Assembly (NCBI GenBank): GCA_963736005.1 | Contig: CAVTNB010000001.1 | Span: 608,001 to 672,000 of the forward strand | Direction of reading: 5' to 3' | Source: an uncultured Pseudomonadota bacterium | GTDB taxonomy: Bacteria; Vulcanimicrobiota; Vulcanimicrobiia; Eremiobacterales; Eremiobacteraceae | Length of the DNA: 64,000 nucleotides | In this document: piece after piece, positions 4,719 through 58,392 of the stretch | Position numbering within the stretch: position 1 is the stretch's first letter | How the letters are laid out: each line of letters begins with the position of its first letter | Made by a program: the position numbers and the translations under genes | Notes under the pieces: model-generated | The model's database searches: none | What the model saw: the letters and a program-made list of their open reading frames with translations, nothing else | What the model was told of the DNA's origin: nothing

Positions 4719-5950
4719 GGGCTCACAATGCGGACGAATTGATGATTGCCCTTTTGTAGAACTTTGCCATGCCAAGATTGCTCCACATGTTTCGCATCAC
4801 TGGCACGCCCGCCGTTAATTTTGATGGCGCCCTGTTCGACCAGACGTTGCGCCTCTCGATTCGATGCGGCCCAACCCACGAGGACGAGCAATTTGCCCAA
4901 AGTTAGGGTCGAGCCGTCCGCCTTCAATTGATATGCGGCGATATCATCAGGCAATTCCTTGCGGACGACCGTCTTCTCAAAGTGCTCCAAGGCGCTTTTC
5001 GCAGCTGCGCTGCCGTGATAGAGCGCGACGATTTCGCCGGAAAGTTTGATTTTGGCGTGGCGCGGTGTCAGGGCTCCGCGCGCCAGTTCCGCTTCTATGC
5101 GATCGCAATCTGCGGCTGAAAGCGTCGTCGCCAAGCGAAAATACCTGACGATCAGGGCATCCGGAATGGACATCACCTTGCCAAACATCTGTGCCGGCTC
5201 ATCCCGCAGGGCAATGAAATTATTGAGACTCTTTCCCATGCGAGCAACGCCGTCTGTGCCTTCGAGGATTGGCAGCGTCATGCAGACCTGCGGTTGTTGC
5301 CCAAACTCTTCTTGCAAACGGCGACCGACCATGAGATTAAAAAGTTGTTCGCTGCCGCCGAGCTCGACGTCGGCCTTGATAGCAACCGAATCATAGCCTT
5401 GACTCAAGGGATAGAGAAATTCGTGCAACCCAATGGGGGAGCCGGCATCAAAGCGCTTCGTAAAGTCATCGCGCTCGAGCATTCGCGCGACGGTTATCTT
5501 GCTTGAAAGCCCGATAACGTCCGCAAAAGACATCGGCGCCAACCACTCGCTGTTGTATTTTATTGTGGTGCGTTCGATATCCAAAATAAGGGCGGCTTGA
5601 TCGGCGTACGAGCGCATGTCACTGCGAATCTCTTCAATGCTGCGCGGCTTTCGTGCGCTTGAGAGGCCGGTTGGGTCCCCTATTTGTGCAGTAAAATCCC
5701 CCACAATGAGCACCGCTTGATGCCCAGCGTCTTGAAAGTCACGCAGCTTGCGCAGTGCCACCGCGTGACCTAGATGAAGCAGAGGGCCAGATGGGTCGAT
5801 CCCAAGTTTCACCCGCAGAGGGTGGTCAAGCCGCGCGGCAAGCTCGTCAGCCGAAATAACGTCGACACAGCGTTCGACGAGTTTCTCTAGTTGTTCGGTT
5901 GCGTTCTTTGCCATTGCCTCTGGTTTTCGGGGCGACTTGACAGCCGCCAA
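4715..5950 (-). CDS. tyrS: Tyrosine--tRNA ligase
   Basis: KLGIDP, HLGH, GDFTAQIGDPTG, RMGKS, C-terminal S4 domain. Confidence 0.96.
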   Translation of the reverse strand: MAAVKSPRKPEAMAKNATEQLEKLVERCVDVISADELAARLDHPLRVKLGIDPSGPLLHLGHAVALRKLRDFQDAGHQAVLIVGDFTAQIGDPTGLSSARKPRSIEEIRSDMRSYADQAALILDIERTTIKYNSEWLAPMSFADVIGLSSKITVARMLERDDFTKRFDAGSPIGLHEFLYPLSQGYDSVAIKADVELGGSEQLFNLMVGRRLQEEFGQQPQVCMTLPILEGTDGVARMGKSLNNFIALRDEPAQMFGKVMSIPDALIVRYFRLATTLSAADCDRIEAELARGALTPRHAKIKLSGEIVALYHGSAAAKSALEHFEKTVVRKELPDDIAAYQLKADGSTLTLGKLLVLVGWAASNREAQRLVEQGAIKINGGRASDAKHVEQSWHGKVLQKGNHQFVRIVSP

Positions 5951-50810: not shown

Positions 50811-51398
50811 TCAGATCTGCGAGGACTGATCCTCGGTCAACCACTTGTCAACCACCTTGGCGCGCGGCGTGTGGCCAGGATACGTGCCGTGCGGGTGTTT
50901 GCGCAACCATTCCCGTGCGCGCATCGCCATGTACTCGAAGTTTGCGAACTGCCAATCGCCGCGCCGCCGTCGCAAGATGGCGATGACCGGTTCGAGGCGG
51001 TCCCAATACGCCACGGTCAGGCGAGCGAACAAATCCATCCAAGCGCTTTCTTCCACAAGATTGTTCTTGAGTAGCGTGCCGACCGCATTGAACCAGTTGC
51101 AGGCGATAATCTCAAGATGCACACGAGAGTCGAGCAAGCCGAGCGCATCGAGCTCTTTGCGAAATTCCTCGTTGCGCAACTTGTAAGGTAGCTCCGCCTG
51201 CACAAAGCGCAACGCTTCCTGCATGTCGCTGCCGCGCAGATCACGTTCCATTGAGATCACGGCACTGATCTGATTAAACGAGGCGGCATGGTGGAGCGAA
51301 ATGGCGGCCGCAATGACGCTGGCCAGCAGCAATAAGAAGGTTCCCACCGTGGCCCAGGTGTTCAACGCTGTATAGTCGATCGCGAATTCAAGCGTCAT
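50811..51398 (-). CDS. DUF4760-like membrane-anchored protein
   Basis: N-terminal TM, NWFNAVG.L, W..L.P.I...R, NFEY. Confidence 0.65.
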   Translation of the reverse strand: MTLEFAIDYTALNTWATVGTFLLLLASVIAAAISLHHAASFNQISAVISMERDLRGSDMQEALRFVQAELPYKLRNEEFRKELDALGLLDSRVHLEIIACNWFNAVGTLLKNNLVEESAWMDLFARLTVAYWDRLEPVIAILRRRRGDWQFANFEYMAMRAREWLRKHPHGTYPGHTPRAKVVDKWLTEDQSSQI

Positions 51399-51449: not shown

Positions 51450-53231
51450 CTATGCAGGTTGTATCTGTGCTTCCGCCAGTTGACGTTGTAGCAGTTCAAC
51501 TCGACGTCGTAGCGATTCTGCTTCCAGATGATCGTAAGCCGCGGCGGCACCAGGCGCGAGATTGCCAATCGCCTTGATCTCATCCGGGTCGAGGCTTTCT
51601 CCGTGGATATGAGAGCCGTAGAATACAATCGCCGCGAGTTCGCGGCGGACGATGATCGGCAATGTCAGGACCGGGTGAGCTGGTCCCGAAGGCACGCCTT
51701 CTGTACGCCAGGGGTGATCGTAAAGGGAGAGAGGTCCATTCTCCGCCTGGGCCAGCATCAACAGGGGATCATCCGTATGATCCAATCTTGATATGTTGGT
51801 TGCATCCCATCCCGCCGACTCTTCACGGACGTACATGCCATCTGGTCCACGACGGAAAAGGGCTGCGGAGGCTAACGACATCGCGCGTGCAGGCTCATCG
51901 ACCAGGAAGTGCGCGACAGCGTTTGTGGTGGGGGCCAGGGGCAATGCGGCCGCATCTCTTGCGAGCTGGCGTTCGGCCCGGTGGCGCTGACGGAAGAACG
52001 TCGCTTCGATTAATGAATCTACCCGCTTATGTAGCCCATTGAACCAAAAGCCACCAGCAACGGCGACACCCATCTCGGCTATAGTACCTAGTCTTGCGAG
52101 TTTGAGCTTGTCGATGAAGAGCCAATCAACGAGGGCAAAAGCACCGACGAGCAAGCTCGTTAGTATCCCGTAAACGAGCGTGCGGCTGACGACAAAGCTC
52201 ACGTCAATGACGCGATGTCTGATGACCGCGTAGGCTACGGTCAGTGGCACGATGACGGTGGATAGCTGAAACACATGTGCCAGCCATATTGGCTCGCTGG
52301 GCACGTACACGTCGAGGAAGAGACTCACAGACTGTATGGCCAAGTTGAGGCCAAACCCAACAACGACCCACCGAATGCGCTGTCTGTCTCCGCCGCGAGC
52401 GCGCATATACGTGTCCACGAACAAATACATCACCATGAGCGACCAGAGCGCAGGTATGCCGACGTAGATGCGGGTTAACAGCTCACCTGGCGGGCCGCCT
52501 ACCCAGCCCCACCAGTACGTGAAAAAAAAGCCGTAAATGAGCAGAGCTGCGAAAAGCAATGGCATCGTTCGGAGCGCCGAAAGCCGCAATCCCTTTAGCG
52601 GCTCGTTGAGGAAGCACAGCGCAAAGGCGAGCAATCCGACGATCCCGGCGGAGATGAGGAGCCAGCTGGCTGAGTACACCACATAGGGCCATGGAAACGG
52701 GAACAAGAGCGTTATGGCGTAATACGTAAAAGGAGTATTGGCTAAACAGTAGAGGAAGAATCCCCAGGTCATCAGGCTGGGTCGAAGCAACACGAGCGCG
52801 GCGCCGAGGACAATATAGAGCACAGCAACGCCAAGAATTGCAATTCGATAGGCTGCGTAAAAGTGCTCTCCTTCTGTTACCTGGGGTCTCGCGGTGAGCG
52901 TAACCAGTCGTAGAACGCCTCTGTGTGTCAACCCAAAAGTGACCTTCTGGCCGGCCTGGAGGGTGCCCGACTGCGCGGCGTACCACCTGAACCGCGCCGG
53001 GGTCGATTGTAGACTAATGGTATCGCCAATTTCCATTCCCGCCTTGGCAGCCGGTGAGCCATCAGCAACGTAGATCAACACGTCATTGCCATTGAGCGCG
53101 TAACCAAAATCGCCGATAGGGACCCATATTCGCCGCAAGTCCAATCCGCCCGCCACAAGCACAAGCAGCGACAACGCGACGACGATCAACGTGCGCAGGG
53201 TGGCTTTGTTAACTGTACTTCGTGTAACCAC
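51450..53231 (-). CDS. PDZ-like + multi-TM + GAF-like membrane receptor with no output domain
   Basis: GSPAAKAGMEIGD PDZ motif, about 9 TMs, YAVIRHRVID, GAF-like C-terminus ending in a short coiled coil. Confidence 0.75.
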   Translation of the reverse strand: MVTRSTVNKATLRTLIVVALSLLVLVAGGLDLRRIWVPIGDFGYALNGNDVLIYVADGSPAAKAGMEIGDTISLQSTPARFRWYAAQSGTLQAGQKVTFGLTHRGVLRLVTLTARPQVTEGEHFYAAYRIAILGVAVLYIVLGAALVLLRPSLMTWGFFLYCLANTPFTYYAITLLFPFPWPYVVYSASWLLISAGIVGLLAFALCFLNEPLKGLRLSALRTMPLLFAALLIYGFFFTYWWGWVGGPPGELLTRIYVGIPALWSLMVMYLFVDTYMRARGGDRQRIRWVVVGFGLNLAIQSVSLFLDVYVPSEPIWLAHVFQLSTVIVPLTVAYAVIRHRVIDVSFVVSRTLVYGILTSLLVGAFALVDWLFIDKLKLARLGTIAEMGVAVAGGFWFNGLHKRVDSLIEATFFRQRHRAERQLARDAAALPLAPTTNAVAHFLVDEPARAMSLASAALFRRGPDGMYVREESAGWDATNISRLDHTDDPLLMLAQAENGPLSLYDHPWRTEGVPSGPAHPVLTLPIIVRRELAAIVFYGSHIHGESLDPDEIKAIGNLAPGAAAAYDHLEAESLRRRVELLQRQLAEAQIQPA

Positions 53232-53285: not shown

Positions 53286-54470
53286 TTACGGATCGACTTC
53301 GTAGAATGCGCTCATGCCACCCATCATGTGGTCGCTGACATGGCAATGGAACAGCCAGACACCAGGGTCATCCGGGACCATGTCGGCGGTTACCATTTGG
53401 GCAGGTGAAAGCGCAATAACGTCGGTGCGTTGCCCGTTGACCAGCACCGTGTTGCCATGCCAATGCGCGGTGTGGAAATTGAACCCGAAGCCGATGGCAA
53501 GCAGATACCAACGCACGTGATCACCCTGCTTCATGACCATTTTTGGCCCATTGCCATAGCTATAGCCGTTGATCGTGAACCTAAAGTTGCTGTTGACAAA
53601 ACCACTTCCGTTCAACGAGAAATCGTTCTCTGCATCGACAGGAACCGCCCCAAATCGAACGGCCTCCTTCATCGTGCCTTTTGGGTCGTGAGTGTAAGCC
53701 TGGATGTTGTGATTCAAATACCAGCTCTGATTCTCGTCGAAAATGTTGAAGAGCGCGACGAATTCACGATCCACATCTTTTGGTGTGCCGTCTGGCCGCG
53801 CCATACCGTGTCGCGTAACGACGATAGCGCCAACCAGCCCGGAGTCGATGTCACGTAGTTCGTTCACGTGGGAGTGATACAGCCAGACAATGGAGCTTGG
53901 ATCGTTCGGGCCCGGTCCTGCGCGTTCTGGAACTTCCCACGTATAGGTGTAGGTATGACCAGGCGGCACCGCGCCACCCTCCTTGTCGCTGAGGGGACTT
54001 CCGTCGTTATAGGCCTGGCCTTCCGAGTCTTTTTTGTAGAAGACGCCGTGCGGGTGCATGCTGTACGGGCGCGAGGCGTTATTCTTGAAGACAACCTTAA
54101 TCGTGTCTCCTACCTCGGCGTGAATGATCGGCCCTAAGAGTCCCAAGTATTGCTCGCTGGACGGCCGAACCTTAAGTTTCGTGAACGTTGCATCCGTATA
54201 CTCGCGATACATTGCCTTACGGTAAACTTTACCGATGGAATGCGAGCCGCGAGTCATATACACTTTTTGATCTGCATCGAATGGCTTGCCGCTGACTTCG
54301 TCGATGTTGCTCGGAGCGTAATCCCATTCGACCTCATCGGCGGCGATATAATAGGTACGAACAGTTCCCGCGTTCGCACCGCTCGTGTCAGCCGCCTGAC
54401 TCGGCAGGCAAAAAAGCGACGCCATGAAAACCAGCAAGCTAAAGAGCACGCTACGACGGACTGTCGACAT
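53286..54470 (-). CDS. Two-domain ceruloplasmin-like multicopper oxidase
   Basis: YYIAADEVEWDYAP, HPHG, WLYHSH, HTAHWH, HCHVSDHMMGGM. Confidence 0.9.
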   Translation of the reverse strand: MSTVRRSVLFSLLVFMASLFCLPSQAADTSGANAGTVRTYYIAADEVEWDYAPSNIDEVSGKPFDADQKVYMTRGSHSIGKVYRKAMYREYTDATFTKLKVRPSSEQYLGLLGPIIHAEVGDTIKVVFKNNASRPYSMHPHGVFYKKDSEGQAYNDGSPLSDKEGGAVPPGHTYTYTWEVPERAGPGPNDPSSIVWLYHSHVNELRDIDSGLVGAIVVTRHGMARPDGTPKDVDREFVALFNIFDENQSWYLNHNIQAYTHDPKGTMKEAVRFGAVPVDAENDFSLNGSGFVNSNFRFTINGYSYGNGPKMVMKQGDHVRWYLLAIGFGFNFHTAHWHGNTVLVNGQRTDVIALSPAQMVTADMVPDDPGVWLFHCHVSDHMMGGMSAFYEVDP

Positions 54471-54656
54471 GTCTTCTACTTCCTCCTCGAGACTGCGCAA
54501 AAAAATATACTAAAGGCGCGACCGAAGAAATGATTATCAGCCGCTCCTCGCTTGGCACGTTATTCAGCGGCCATTAGGAGGCTCCTTGCTTAGCGATACT
54601 CGACGTCACCTGCTCATCGAGGTGACGCACTCTGGCCGCACAAACTACAGGGCGGC

Positions 54657-55262
54657 ATGAAGCTCATTGTTCGCCCGCTCACGCTTGATCTTTGGCCAGC
54701 GTTCAAGGACCTCTTCGGCAAGAACGGCGCCTCCAATGGCTGCTGGTGCATGTATTGGCGGATTGGCAGCGCGTATCGGAAGCGGCTGCGCGAGAGAAAC
54801 AGGTCGGCATTTCGAGAGGTCGTGAAGCGCGGTCCGCCACCGGGCCTACTCGCCTTCGACGGCGACCTTGCGGTGGGCTGGTGCCAACTTACCCCGCGTG
54901 ATGCCCTGCCGTGGCTCGAGCAGGTGCGGCGACGGCAGCGCATGGACGACGCACCGGTCTGGTCGCTCTCCTGCTTCTATGTGCGCAGAGGCTATCGCAA
55001 GCGGGGAGTTCAGTTTGCACTGATTGGAGCGGCCTTGAAGTTCGCAAAACGCGCAAAGGCTCTCGCGCTCGAAGCTTATCCCATCGATACGAAGCAACCA
55101 AAGAGCACCTCGAATCTTTTTACTGGTACCGCCTCGACATTCACGCGCGCAGGATTCAAGACCGTTGCCCGCCTCGTGCCATACCGCGTGCTGATGCGCT
55201 ACGATCTGAAAACGAGCCGCGATGATGCTCGAACGCCAAAGAAAAAGGGAGGGCACCTCTAG
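54657..55262 (+). CDS. GNAT family acetyltransferase
   Basis: CWCMYWR, VGWC, SCFYV...YRKRGV, LEAYP. Confidence 0.88.
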   Translation: MKLIVRPLTLDLWPAFKDLFGKNGASNGCWCMYWRIGSAYRKRLRERNRSAFREVVKRGPPPGLLAFDGDLAVGWCQLTPRDALPWLEQVRRRQRMDDAPVWSLSCFYVRRGYRKRGVQFALIGAALKFAKRAKALALEAYPIDTKQPKSTSNLFTGTASTFTRAGFKTVARLVPYRVLMRYDLKTSRDDARTPKKKGGHL

Positions 55263-55314
55263 GCCGGTGCGCTCCCTGATGCACCCGACGCTTCGGGCGC
55301 TTTAGGGTTTCGTG

Positions 55315-55422
55315 TTACGCGTTTCCGCACCACGTGCCGACGACGCTACATTCTTGTCCGAGGGCTTCGGCTAAGACTGTCTTCGCATCGAGCGAGGCGA
55401 GGATTCTCGGTGTGGAGTACAT
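55315..55422 (-). CDS. 35-aa putative RiPP-like precursor peptide
   Basis: AAAAGGAG RBS, MYSTPRILASLDAKTVLAEALGQECSVVGTWCGNA, downstream hairpin. Confidence 0.6.
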   Translation of the reverse strand: MYSTPRILASLDAKTVLAEALGQECSVVGTWCGNA

Positions 55423-55831
55423 GAGGAAGATTCTCCTTTTGAACCATCGGAGAGAGCGCCTCATCGCGCCCGATCGCTCCGTGTAGGCGGGCGACAAGAT
55501 TAATTGTACTCCCCCCGGCGTGCTATACCGCGGTGCAAAAGCCCCACGCGCCCAGAGACGCAAGCCCACTACGGCCCATATGAGGCGTACACGAGACGTA
55601 GTCCGGTGGAGTAATCGCTCGCTTACTAAGTGAGCGTGCATCATTTCTTGACGATCACGCCTCCGGATGAGTACTGTACGGACCATGTCTTGCTGTGGTG
55701 TAAATCACATCCGCAAAAATCCGCGTTTACTGTTACCAAATTCGCGGGAGACTCGGAGAGGTTGAGTAACCTTTTCTTTTCTCTTACGTCGTCGTGTTGT
55801 CATTATTTGTGACCGTCTGGATTGGGGTGCC

Positions 55832-56446
55832 GTGCGGATCAAAGAGTTTGCAGCAGCAATCAAAGCGCGAGCAACTTCAATGCTTGGAGCGGACCCGCAC
55901 GTTACGCGGCGCGACTTCTTACTCAATCTTATGCCCGAGGGATCCATATGTGCCGAAATAGGAGTTTTTAAGGGAGAGTTTTCATCCCGCATATTCCAGC
56001 TCGTCAAACCGCAGAGGCTCCATTTAATTGATCCCTGGAAATACGAGCAATCGACAACCTATGAGCACACGTGGTACGGCGGCCGGCTTGGTATAAGTCA
56101 AGCCAATATGGACCATATGTTTTACGCGGTCGCGGCCCGATTTAAGCACCAACGTAATGCCGGTACTGTCAGCATCCATAGGATGGAGTCAGCGACCGCT
56201 GCGGGGCTCTTCTCTAATGATTACTTCGACTGGGTGTACATCGATGGCAATCACAGCTACGACTACGTCAGGGCAGATCTTCTGAACTTCTATCCAAAAG
56301 TAAAAACCGGAGGCTTTATCACGGGCGATGACTACGGCTCTCAGGGTTGGTGGGGTGATGGCGTCACGAGAGCCGTGGACGAATTTCGTCGTGACTGTAC
56401 CACCGTCTTGATTCAGTCATCCCAATTCATTTTGCAGAAAACTTGA
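55832..56446 (+). CDS. Class I SAM-dependent methyltransferase (Methyltransf_24-like)
   Basis: AEIGVFKG, LIDPW, DWVYIDGNHSY, GGFITGDDY. Confidence 0.88.
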   Translation: MRIKEFAAAIKARATSMLGADPHVTRRDFLLNLMPEGSICAEIGVFKGEFSSRIFQLVKPQRLHLIDPWKYEQSTTYEHTWYGGRLGISQANMDHMFYAVAARFKHQRNAGTVSIHRMESATAAGLFSNDYFDWVYIDGNHSYDYVRADLLNFYPKVKTGGFITGDDYGSQGWWGDGVTRAVDEFRRDCTTVLIQSSQFILQKT

Positions 56447-57747: not shown

Positions 57748-57774
57748 CGGGCGATGTTCCAATCGCCCGCTACA
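57748..57774. repeat. GTAG-type REP-like palindrome, family B
   Basis: CGGGCGAT-GTTCCA-ATCGCCCG-CTACA. Confidence 0.7.
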
Positions 57775-57787
57775 GAGGTAGCCGACA

Positions 57788-58392
57788 TGGCGTCGTTCGA
57801 TCACATAGCGCCCATCGCATCGCTCGTTATCTCTTTTGCAACGGTGCTCTTTAGCACGCTGCTGCTTTCCCGGCAAGTGCGACAAATGGAGCACGAACGC
57901 AACGCCCTTGCCATTCTTCGCGCGATCGAGCGTCTGACGTCCCCAACGATCGTGCACGTCTTTATTCAGCTTCGGGACGTCGCGGCGCGCTACCCAAACG
58001 ACGAAGCTCTGCGTGACCGATTCCTCGGCTCGGCTGACGAGGAAGCCCTCGAGATAGTTGGACAATATGTGGAGACGATCGCTACTTTGGCCCGCCGTGA
58101 GGTGCTCGACGCCTCGCTCCTCGTTGATGCGGTAGGGCTAATGCTGCGGACTCGTTGGACCGCCATTCGAGACTTTGTCTACCACCTGCGACGCTTTCAG
58201 GGCAATCCGTATATGTTCGAAAATTTCGAGTGGCTCGCCCGTTACAGTGCGTGGTGGAAGGAAGTGCCGCGCCCCGCTGGTACGGAAAACTATCAAGACT
58301 CGCAGTTTGTTCCGAGCATCGACGATGAATTCGAGCACTTGCAGAAGCGGGCGATTTCCGAGTCGCCTACCGCGGAGCAAACGGTGCCATGA
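57788..58392 (+). CDS. DUF4760-like membrane-anchored protein
   Basis: N-terminal TM, YVETIATL, W..IRDFV..LR, ENFEWLA. Confidence 0.65.

Follow-up and report, generated by a model that had tools for sequence, protein, structure and literature searches.

The 64,000-nucleotide (nt) window analysed here (G000:C1:608001-672000, from the 2.84-Mb, six-contig genome of an uncultured Eremiobacterota bacterium) contains, in a gap between two larger genes, a minus-strand open reading frame (ORF) of only 35 codons. An initial annotation of the DNA had put it forward as a candidate orphan precursor of a peptide made by ribosomes and modified after translation (RiPP) or as a signal peptide. The locus raises two questions: is this ORF a gene, and which enzymes could act on its product? 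The 35-codon ORF is a real protein-coding gene, with purifying selection on a 22-residue leader and fast change in the core, and it has its own ribosome-binding site, conserved 5' element and terminator. Its peptide family is genomically tied to one operon, which encodes HPr-kinase (HprK)-like proteins, a peptidase-nucleotidyltransferase fusion and a PqqD protein. We consider it highly probable that the window ORF is an orphan precursor of a RiPP family restricted to one class of Eremiobacterota, tied to this operon and matured in trans.

The window gene

Positions 55422-55315 of the minus strand translate to MYSTPRILASLDAKTVLAEALGQECSVVGTWCGNA, followed by a TAA stop at 55317-55315. The gene and its flanking signals are:

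55315-55422, minus strand: precursor peptide gene, 35 codons plus TAA stop (translation, paralogs, public product, RNA contig 55321-55470)
55357-55422, minus strand: leader, codons 1-22, MYSTPRILASLDAKTVLAEALG, with the YxxPxI motif inside and A-L-G at the end
55318-55356, minus strand: core, 13 codons, QECSVVGTWCGNA, with Cys25 and Cys32 (C-x6-C) and Ser26 at core position 4
55433-55440, minus strand: Shine-Dalgarno-like AAAAGGAG, 10 nt upstream of the ATG (55422-55420)
55281-55300, minus strand: first 3' hairpin, 8 pairs (one G-T), loop AGCG, present in the sequence and in the minimum free energy and centroid folds, kept in ortholog L045
55241-55277, minus strand: intrinsic-terminator-like stem-loop with a T run (terminator scan, stem 55270-55253), stronger than the first hairpin

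The reading frame, the Shine-Dalgarno-like site and the first hairpin agreed with the initial annotation. The gap in which it had placed the gene alone, at about 570 nt, measured 569 nt from a GNAT ORF (end 55262) to a Methyltransf_24 ORF (start 55832). Its description of the gene as hidden held in one respect, as the naive ORF list encloses the 35-codon ORF in a 123-aa ORF (55315-55686), but not in another, as the exact 35-aa product was already in public protein collections, without a name. The 123-aa product was absent from those collections. The ortholog in a sister genome (L045) had two 1-nt indels in the upstream part of the 123-aa ORF, and similarity among the paralogs, in an alignment of 8 upstream regions, stopped ~50 nt 5' of the ATG. 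Pfam and NCBIfam scans of the 35-aa and 123-aa products returned no families. All eight paralogs in G000 had an ATG start with a GGAG-type site at the same ~10-nt distance, which is far more than chance would give and places the window ORF among genuine genes.

A conserved leader and a hypervariable core

The eight paralogs, the window gene among them, were found by six-frame search and are scattered, with 31-35 codons each, all starting with ATG; one further precursor copy lies 3.3 kb past the window end. Residues 1-22 of the eight aligned gap-free, with M1, Y2, P5, I7, A9, S10, D12 and G22 invariant (consensus MY..P[KR]I..AS.D....L..A.G), and the remainder, a hypervariable core of 9-13 residues, was unalignable. 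Relatives' loci added up to 44 distinct members (41 without the unpublished genomes G008 and G013). Y2 and P5 were invariant in all 44 and position 7 was Ile in 43/44; the 41-sequence alignment had M1, Y2, P5 and A9 invariant and I7, S10, D12, L17 and G22 conserved in at least 90% of sequences. When 1.84 billion representative proteins were searched with a profile, 69 matched at E <= 0.001, most of them 29-45 aa long. Among the 66 representative matches read (P0159-P0226, <=150 aa), 60 started with M-Y-x-x-P, and G22 was present in all 60 of those.

The region after Gly22 was hypervariable in all three sets (8 own paralogs, 44 relatives' members and 60 representatives). A family with conserved leaders and variable cores had been set beforehand as the test of the initial annotation, and such a family exists. 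Its other expectations for the peptide, a leader running to about ALG before a variable 13-aa core and a YxxPxI motif of the kind bound by a RiPP recognition element (RRE), were likewise supported, the latter also by a PqqD-type RRE in the cognate operon described below. A stable stem with a T run was found downstream of 27/44 members.

Codon changes pointed to selection on the protein. When the 44 members were compared in 946 pairs over leader codons 1-22, the mean differences at codon positions 1, 2 and 3 were 6.7, 3.49 and 12.86, with 3.7 times as many third-position as second-position changes. The invariant Y2, P5 and A9 columns and the near-invariant G22 column used 2, 4, 4 and 4 codons. 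Counted by eye against ortholog L045, the leader had 4 synonymous and 0 non-synonymous changes, and the core had three changed codons, all non-synonymous (E24N, T30V, A35T), with 0 synonymous.

The cores of the 44 members had 5-18 residues and were acidic overall (41 Asp + Glu vs 12 Lys + Arg), with Ser at 15%, Cys at 15% and Gly at 12%. Every core contained Ser, as did those of 59/60 representatives; it occupied core position 4 in 25/44 members and positions 3-5 in 33/44. Cys was absent from every leader. Two Cys occurred in 32/44 cores, most often as C-x4-6-C, and 3/44 cores were Cys-free. Leader residues 18, 20 and 22 were small (A/S/T/G, A and G, respectively). Signal-peptidase-type enzymes favour small residues at -3 and -1, and the leader cut may therefore fall after A20 or after G22.

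Cores this rich in Ser and Cys bring to mind a thioether (lanthipeptide-like) route, by which core Ser/Thr would be phosphorylated, the phosphate eliminated to dehydroalanine, and Cys added to form lanthionine rings, with no disulfide. Class III-V lanthipeptide synthetases likewise phosphorylate first and then eliminate. A Ser lay within three residues of a Cys in 38/44 cores, and the operon has two different kinase-fold paralogs. HprK/P-type enzymes, however, are known for phosphotransfer and phosphorolysis and not for beta-elimination, and none of the operon proteins matched a lyase, a LanC-type cyclase, a LanB/LanM/LanKC/LanL-type dehydratase or any other lanthipeptide-family domain in Pfam or NCBIfam. 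Among the 60 representative cores, 12 were Cys-free and 11 had a single Cys. We regard this route as unlikely.

The cognate operon

One of the eight paralogs heads an operon at G000:C1 ~995.5-999.8 kb (locus L012), 336 kb from the window gene:

G000:C1:999766-999662, minus strand: operon-heading precursor (locus L012)
L012 ~4990-5010 (G000:C1 ~996.99-997.01 kb): frameshift site in the fusion gene, a one-base insertion

The order in L012 is precursor, hairpin, second copy of the 5' motif, HprK-like A, HprK-like B, signal-peptidase-like ORF, NTP_transf_5 ORF and an 84-aa PqqD ORF, with overlapping GTGA at the operon junctions. Beside it, in divergent orientation, lie genes for a DrrA-like ATP-binding cassette (ABC) ATPase and for an ABC_export permease. 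Inspection of the neighbourhoods of all eight loci found no maturase-like neighbour common to the other seven, and only loci 1 and 6 had paralogous neighbours in common (a 593/594-aa membrane protein and DUF4760 proteins). The initial annotation had the maturases acting in trans, which fits a single linked enzyme set 336 kb away. The DNA alone could not have told it their kind: the linked enzymes are HprK-like proteins and a peptidase-nucleotidyltransferase fusion, not the radical SAM/SPASM or transglutaminase-like peptidase genes that it had named as ones to look for.

Kinase-fold proteins. The HprK-like A model had a mean predicted local distance difference test (pLDDT) score of 91.9. Its best fold matches were phosphoenolpyruvate carboxykinase (1aq2, E 4e-8, template modeling (TM) score 0.61 on query) and the HprK/P catalytic domain (2qmh, 1kkm; TM ~0.52 on target). 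Its Walker-A Lys-Thr and Asp-Glu pair were invariant in 35 sequences. HprK-like B had H124, G144-K145 and D162-E163 invariant in 9 sequences, and single-kinase systems retain the B type. With its full His-Lys-Asp-Asp/Glu set, HprK-like B is the likely catalyst as judged from its residues. All 53 homologs of HprK-like A found were unnamed or 'hypothetical'; the nearest language-model clusters were named 'putative HprK-related kinase A'.

Fusion protein. The peptidase-like and NTP_transf_5 parts form one ~530-aa protein in relatives (53 homologs, most of 505-552 aa), modelled at pLDDT 90.2. The peptidase half had near-invariant S37 and H74 and invariant D89, within the G-x-S-M-x-P, A-H-R and G-D motifs of ER/archaeal-type signal peptidases, and matched TIGR02228 at E 8e-9 and 35.6 bits, under the cut-off of 51.85. 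In an alignment to SEC11A, its G-S-S-M-x-P and A-H-R-V motifs coincide with the region of the catalytic Ser and His. It differs from SEC11A-type enzymes in its lack of an evident membrane anchor, its fusion to a nucleotidyltransferase and its place in an operon for peptide maturation. The transferase half had a conserved D283-x-D285, and a sequence search of the PDB with the NTP_transf_5 part gave nothing meaningful. Foldseek gave weak domain matches (E 0.004-0.2) to MenT1, ANT(2'')-Ia and TM1012 on the transferase side and to SEC11A, LexA and UmuD' on the peptidase side.

PqqD protein. The operon PqqD matched PF05402 at 48 bits, and some of its public orthologs are named after the 'HPr-rel-A system' chaperone. 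The predicted PqqD-precursor complex scored 0.53 vs 0.02 for the best of 3 controls, with at least 95% contact agreement between runs and a partner pLDDT of at least 58. The mark for this score was reached by 116/157 solved complexes and 2/215 mismatched pairs, but passes at <=0.60 comprised only 18/157 solved complexes and both of the mismatches. Solved RRE-leader complexes exist, so a pass may reflect likeness only, and the prediction lends weak support to PqqD-leader binding. The strongest PqqD match in the genome (C1:1.902 Mb) was set aside as part of a PQQ operon with PqqB/C/D/E. That cluster (G000:C1:1,901-1,904 kb, L095) has PqqB-, PqqC- and PqqD-like genes and a radical SAM/SPASM PqqE-like gene, and is unrelated to the peptide family.

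Peptide and enzymes across genomes

In a set of 24 same-family genomes, searches with the peptide profile and with HprK-like A picked out an identical 10 (G001-G004, G008, G013, G017, G018 (weak), G019 and G023), or 8/22 without the unpublished G008 and G013; these related genomes are not independent samples. In 9/10, the kinase gene was preceded on its own strand, at a distance of 190-330 nt, by one to three peptide genes; in the tenth, G001, only 168 nt of contig remain upstream of the kinase gene. The same gene set was present in 3/3 relatives' loci long enough to reveal it. Across the phylum, a wider profile found the peptide in 21/301 genomes: 7/22 in family f1, 13/206 in f2 and 0/72 in 19 other families, with G000 counted in the total and left out of the per-family tallies. 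An HprK-like gene was adjacent (4) or 4 kb away (1) in 5/5 tested f2 genomes. Four f2 loci had the same set of one or two HprK-like genes, fusion, PqqD and ABC ATPase, with a precursor found by pattern search in 3/4 of them, and two further f2 loci had tandem precursors directly upstream. Matching public contigs were labelled as metagenome-assembled genomes of Eremiobacteraeota, Eremiobacteraceae or Vulcanimicrobiota, with a few labelled proteobacterium or Acidiferrales.

The kinases need not act on the peptide at all if it is exported essentially unmodified, as a bacteriocin-like or signalling product that is only cleaved and disulfide-bonded, with the kinase and transferase serving regulation, immunity or another substrate. 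The short anionic core with two Cys, the ABC exporter beside the operon, and small residues at -3 and -1 that fit signal-peptidase-type cleavage are all compatible with this. A PqqD-type peptide-binding protein and two kinase-fold proteins are nevertheless kept with the precursors across two families, and core Ser is nearly universal. The ABC ATPase had only ABC_tran/AAA_21 domains, with no peptidase domain. The leader is not a Sec signal, as it has no hydrophobic h-region and one N-terminal Lys/Arg at most; the signal peptide alternative of the initial annotation was likewise not supported. Unmodified export is therefore, in our judgement, highly unlikely as an explanation of the family.

Comparison with known systems

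The conserved leader and variable core, together with a PqqD-like RRE encoded in a paralog-headed operon and not adjacent to the window copy, fit an RRE-dependent RiPP precursor. The leader ends in L-G and not in the GG, GA or GS that, with a C39 exporter domain, defines double-glycine leaders.

The nearest likeness was to phosphorylated lasso peptides. According to two papers on lasso clusters (PMC9266682, PMC10368454), HPr-kinase homologs phosphorylate Ser of the linear precursor. One of these, BsfK, targets core Ser3, with the B1 RRE speeding up the reaction, and the nucleotidyltransferase homolog PsmN adds a hexose onto the phosphoserine. The same papers report a His-Lys-Asp-Asp set for the kinases, and a leader YxxPxL motif at -17 to -12. 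As far as they are described there, the paeninodin (pade), pseudomycoidin (psm) and Bradymonas (bsf) clusters share with the system here a Y-x-x-P-x-L/I leader, a small PqqD-type RRE (B1), an HPr-kinase-like kinase, a nucleotidyltransferase-homolog 'N' gene and an ABC exporter, and the His-Lys-Asp-Asp/Glu set of HprK-like B matches the set reported for the lasso kinases. Unlike them, the operon here has no B2 cysteine protease and no asparagine-synthetase-like cyclase, its cores fail the ring rules and its motif is 4 residues further from the junction. It also has two kinase paralogs, a nucleotidyltransferase fused to an ER/archaeal-type signal-peptidase-like domain, and scattered multi-copy precursors. 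The system looks like the tailoring half of a phosphorylated-lasso cluster without the lasso-forming enzymes.

The window peptide could still be a lasso precursor if it were matured by lasso-B2-like and asparagine-synthetase-like proteins from other loci of the genome. The leader has the lasso-type YxxPxI motif, and contigs C2 and C3 encode two B2-like proteins (PF13471; NF033537 at 42 bits) with PqqD-, HprK- and NTP_transf_5-like genes alongside. The genome also has two Asn_synthase genes. These Asn_synthase genes, however, lie far from the B2-like genes (one on C4, and one on C2 at 180 kb vs 43 kb). The B2-like loci are glycosyltransferase-rich, and a search there for small ORFs with YxxPx[LIVM] gave no family-type peptide. 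Cyclase and B2 protease are absent from the operon in G000 and in relatives alike, and the peptide family co-occurs with and adjoins the HprK/S26-nucleotidyltransferase (NTase)/PqqD operon instead. The peptide itself fits poorly: core QECSVVGTWCGNA has no Asp/Glu at positions 7-9 (G, T, W), many family cores have no acidic residue, and the motif (Y2, P5, I7) would lie at -21 to -16 with a leader ending at G22, 4 residues further than -17 to -12. The initial annotation had doubted a classical lasso peptide on the missing acidic residue, and we find the lasso alternative scarcely credible.

The NCBIfam 'HPr-rel-A system' (TIGR04352, HprK-related kinase A; TIGR04353, PqqD family peptide chaperone) similarly pairs a kinase-fold protein with a PqqD chaperone, and to our knowledge has no precursor family attached to it. 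The proteins here fall under both curated cut-offs (48.4 and 37.8 bits vs 200 for the HprK-like proteins, 32.9 vs 35 for PqqD). Prochlorosins are made by one synthetase (LanM) from many unlinked precursor genes with a conserved leader and hypervariable cores. The family here likewise combines one enzyme set with many scattered precursors, but the enzymes are unrelated and the leader, 22 residues long, is an RRE ligand of the lasso type. Searches of the literature for HprK-related, HPr-rel-A, NTP_transf_5 or RRE plus HPr kinase systems returned lasso papers or unrelated work only, and those for RiPPs with a signal peptidase/S26 and nucleotidyltransferase, or from Eremiobacter, returned no paper on such a system; subscription journals were mostly uncovered, so absence from print is not proven.

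Proposed maturation and its weight

We propose that the PqqD protein would bind the YxxPxI leader of all eight precursors in trans, that of the window peptide included, and present the core to the kinase-fold enzymes, with HprK-like B as the likely catalyst. The kinase would phosphorylate a serine of the core whose spacing from the leader is more or less constant (Ser26 in the window peptide), and the nucleotidyltransferase domain could then decorate the phosphorylated site further. The fused Ser-His peptidase domain would cut the leader beside the small residues A20 and G22, and the ABC transporter would export the product, with a disulfide loop closing where two cysteines exist. The order of these steps follows the lasso precedents BsfK and PsmN. 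The product may serve in antagonism, signalling or metal binding.

Several points weigh against the reading as a whole. Every chemical step is argued by analogy, and trans processing of a peptide encoded 336 kb from the enzymes is suggested by the common leader and 5' motif. Both HprK-like proteins are far under the NCBIfam cut-off (bits given above), and the fusion protein had no Foldseek match at E <= 0.001. In G000 the fusion gene is split by the one-base insertion listed above, relative to a 97%-identical 544-aa homolog. The gene is intact in the sister genome (L052), and the frameshift may stem from an assembly error, or be a genuine lesion and mean that the pathway is impaired here. The core serine varies in position, and in one representative core there is a Thr but no Ser. 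A disulfide cannot be essential, since 12/60 representative cores have no Cys. RNA support is one contig from one run, for which DNA carry-over is possible, and the genome is only 84% complete.

With somewhat more doubt than confidence, we suggest further that the precursor family to which the window gene belongs founds a new class of RiPPs, derived from a phosphorylated-lasso pathway by loss of the ring-forming enzymes. In such a class, a kinase pair of the phosphoenolpyruvate carboxykinase/HprK fold and the signal-peptidase-nucleotidyltransferase fusion, guided by a lasso-type RRE, would make small phospho-nucleotidylated, phospho-glycosylated or newly cyclised peptides from scattered, fast-diversifying Cys/Ser/His-rich cores under one common regulatory 5' hairpin. 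If this is true, strain-level antagonism and metal capture are roles that the products could have in their soil phylum. Very few Eremiobacterota have been cultured, and next to nothing is known of the natural products of the phylum; the enzyme set has so far been found only in this uncultured soil phylum. The finding indicates that lasso 'tailoring' enzymes (HPr-kinase-like kinase, NTP_transf_5 transferase and B1 RRE) can form a self-standing pathway with its own leader peptidase, which would broaden the functions ascribed to these enzyme families. The leader motif and the S26-NTase fusion would provide a handle for genome mining, and the five-gene operon with precursors of 30-40 codons is a defined, cheap system for co-expression.

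Shared 5' element and transcription

Two elements lie upstream of the Shine-Dalgarno-like site:

55454-55471, minus strand: conserved 5' inverted repeat GGGCGC-GATGAG-GCGCTC, with core 13-mer GCGCGATGAGGCG at 55469-55457
55472-55497, minus strand: block 5' of the repeat, TTGTCGCC...TACACGGAGCGATCG, partly conserved among paralogs (8 upstream regions, listing of 44)

The exact 13-mer GCGCGATGAGGCG has 6 copies in the 2.84-Mb genome, all of them 44-52 nt upstream of an ATG, at 5/8 precursors and the operon's first kinase gene and nowhere else. The 10-mer GCGATGAGGC was found upstream of 26/44 family members. Variant stems of the repeat change on both sides with pairing kept, and G-T pairs are tolerated on the sense strand, a pattern that seems to favour an RNA hairpin over a protein operator. 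The repeat is probably a hairpin of the 5' untranslated region (UTR), or an operator, common to the precursor genes and the enzyme operon. With its GATGAG loop, the inverted repeat identifies a small regulon, made up of precursors and the kinase operon, that is recognizable in the sequence itself. Two paralogs (G000:C1:1522884 and C3:104607) have different perfect palindromes at the same position.

The block at 55472-55497 is a candidate promoter by its position and partial conservation; a sigma-70 promoter scan of 55100-55900 returned 0 sites. The fold of the whole transcript was not clearly better than those of shuffled sequences (z -1.87) and paired the 5' motif elsewhere, so the case for the 5' hairpin is a comparative one. 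A soil metatranscriptome run (X1) yielded a single 153-nt contig at a depth of 3.7, which covered only 55321-55470, that is, the ORF and the 5' UTR up to the repeat. It had four differences from the window, of which the two listed are third-position and synonymous. The contig is a weak hint that the window gene is expressed, as contigs show neither ends nor strand.

Neighbouring genes and related loci

Paralogous 593/594-aa multi-pass membrane proteins (51% identical, no Pfam match) and DUF4760 proteins are encoded near both the window precursor and the next copy past the window end:

Window 51450-53231 and 50811-51398, minus strand, and 57754-58392, plus strand: membrane/DUF4760 neighbours of the window precursor
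L009 9703-11487 and 5936-6550, minus strand: membrane/DUF4760 neighbours of the next copy, paralogous to those in the window

These shared neighbours may reflect a segmental duplication or a functional link. A secreted PEBP/YbhB-like protein (assigned by eye) is encoded convergent with the operon's PqqD gene (L012 2989-3549, plus strand) and in the same place in relatives L051 and L052.

HprK-like, PqqD-like and NTP_transf_5 genes and a lasso-B2-like transglutaminase (PF13471) occur together at G000:C2:35-44 kb (L093) and G000:C3:20-25 kb (L094). They are embedded among glycosyltransferase, sulfotransferase and short-chain dehydrogenase/reductase (SDR) genes, with no Asn-synthetase-like cyclase seen there.

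A multicopper oxidase (window 53286-54500, minus strand) is encoded 0.8 kb downstream of the window precursor, and a cupredoxin (L009 2963-3460, plus strand) near the next copy. These neighbours and the His/Cys/Asp-rich cores hint at metal chemistry, but the neighbours are not conserved across loci. In a second family of genomes, the kinase-adjacent precursors at L073 2548-2655 (minus strand) and L075 1128-1298 (plus strand) have cores that are Gly-Ser-rich and end in alternating His-Gly, or are His/Asp-rich, and that resemble metal-binding tails.

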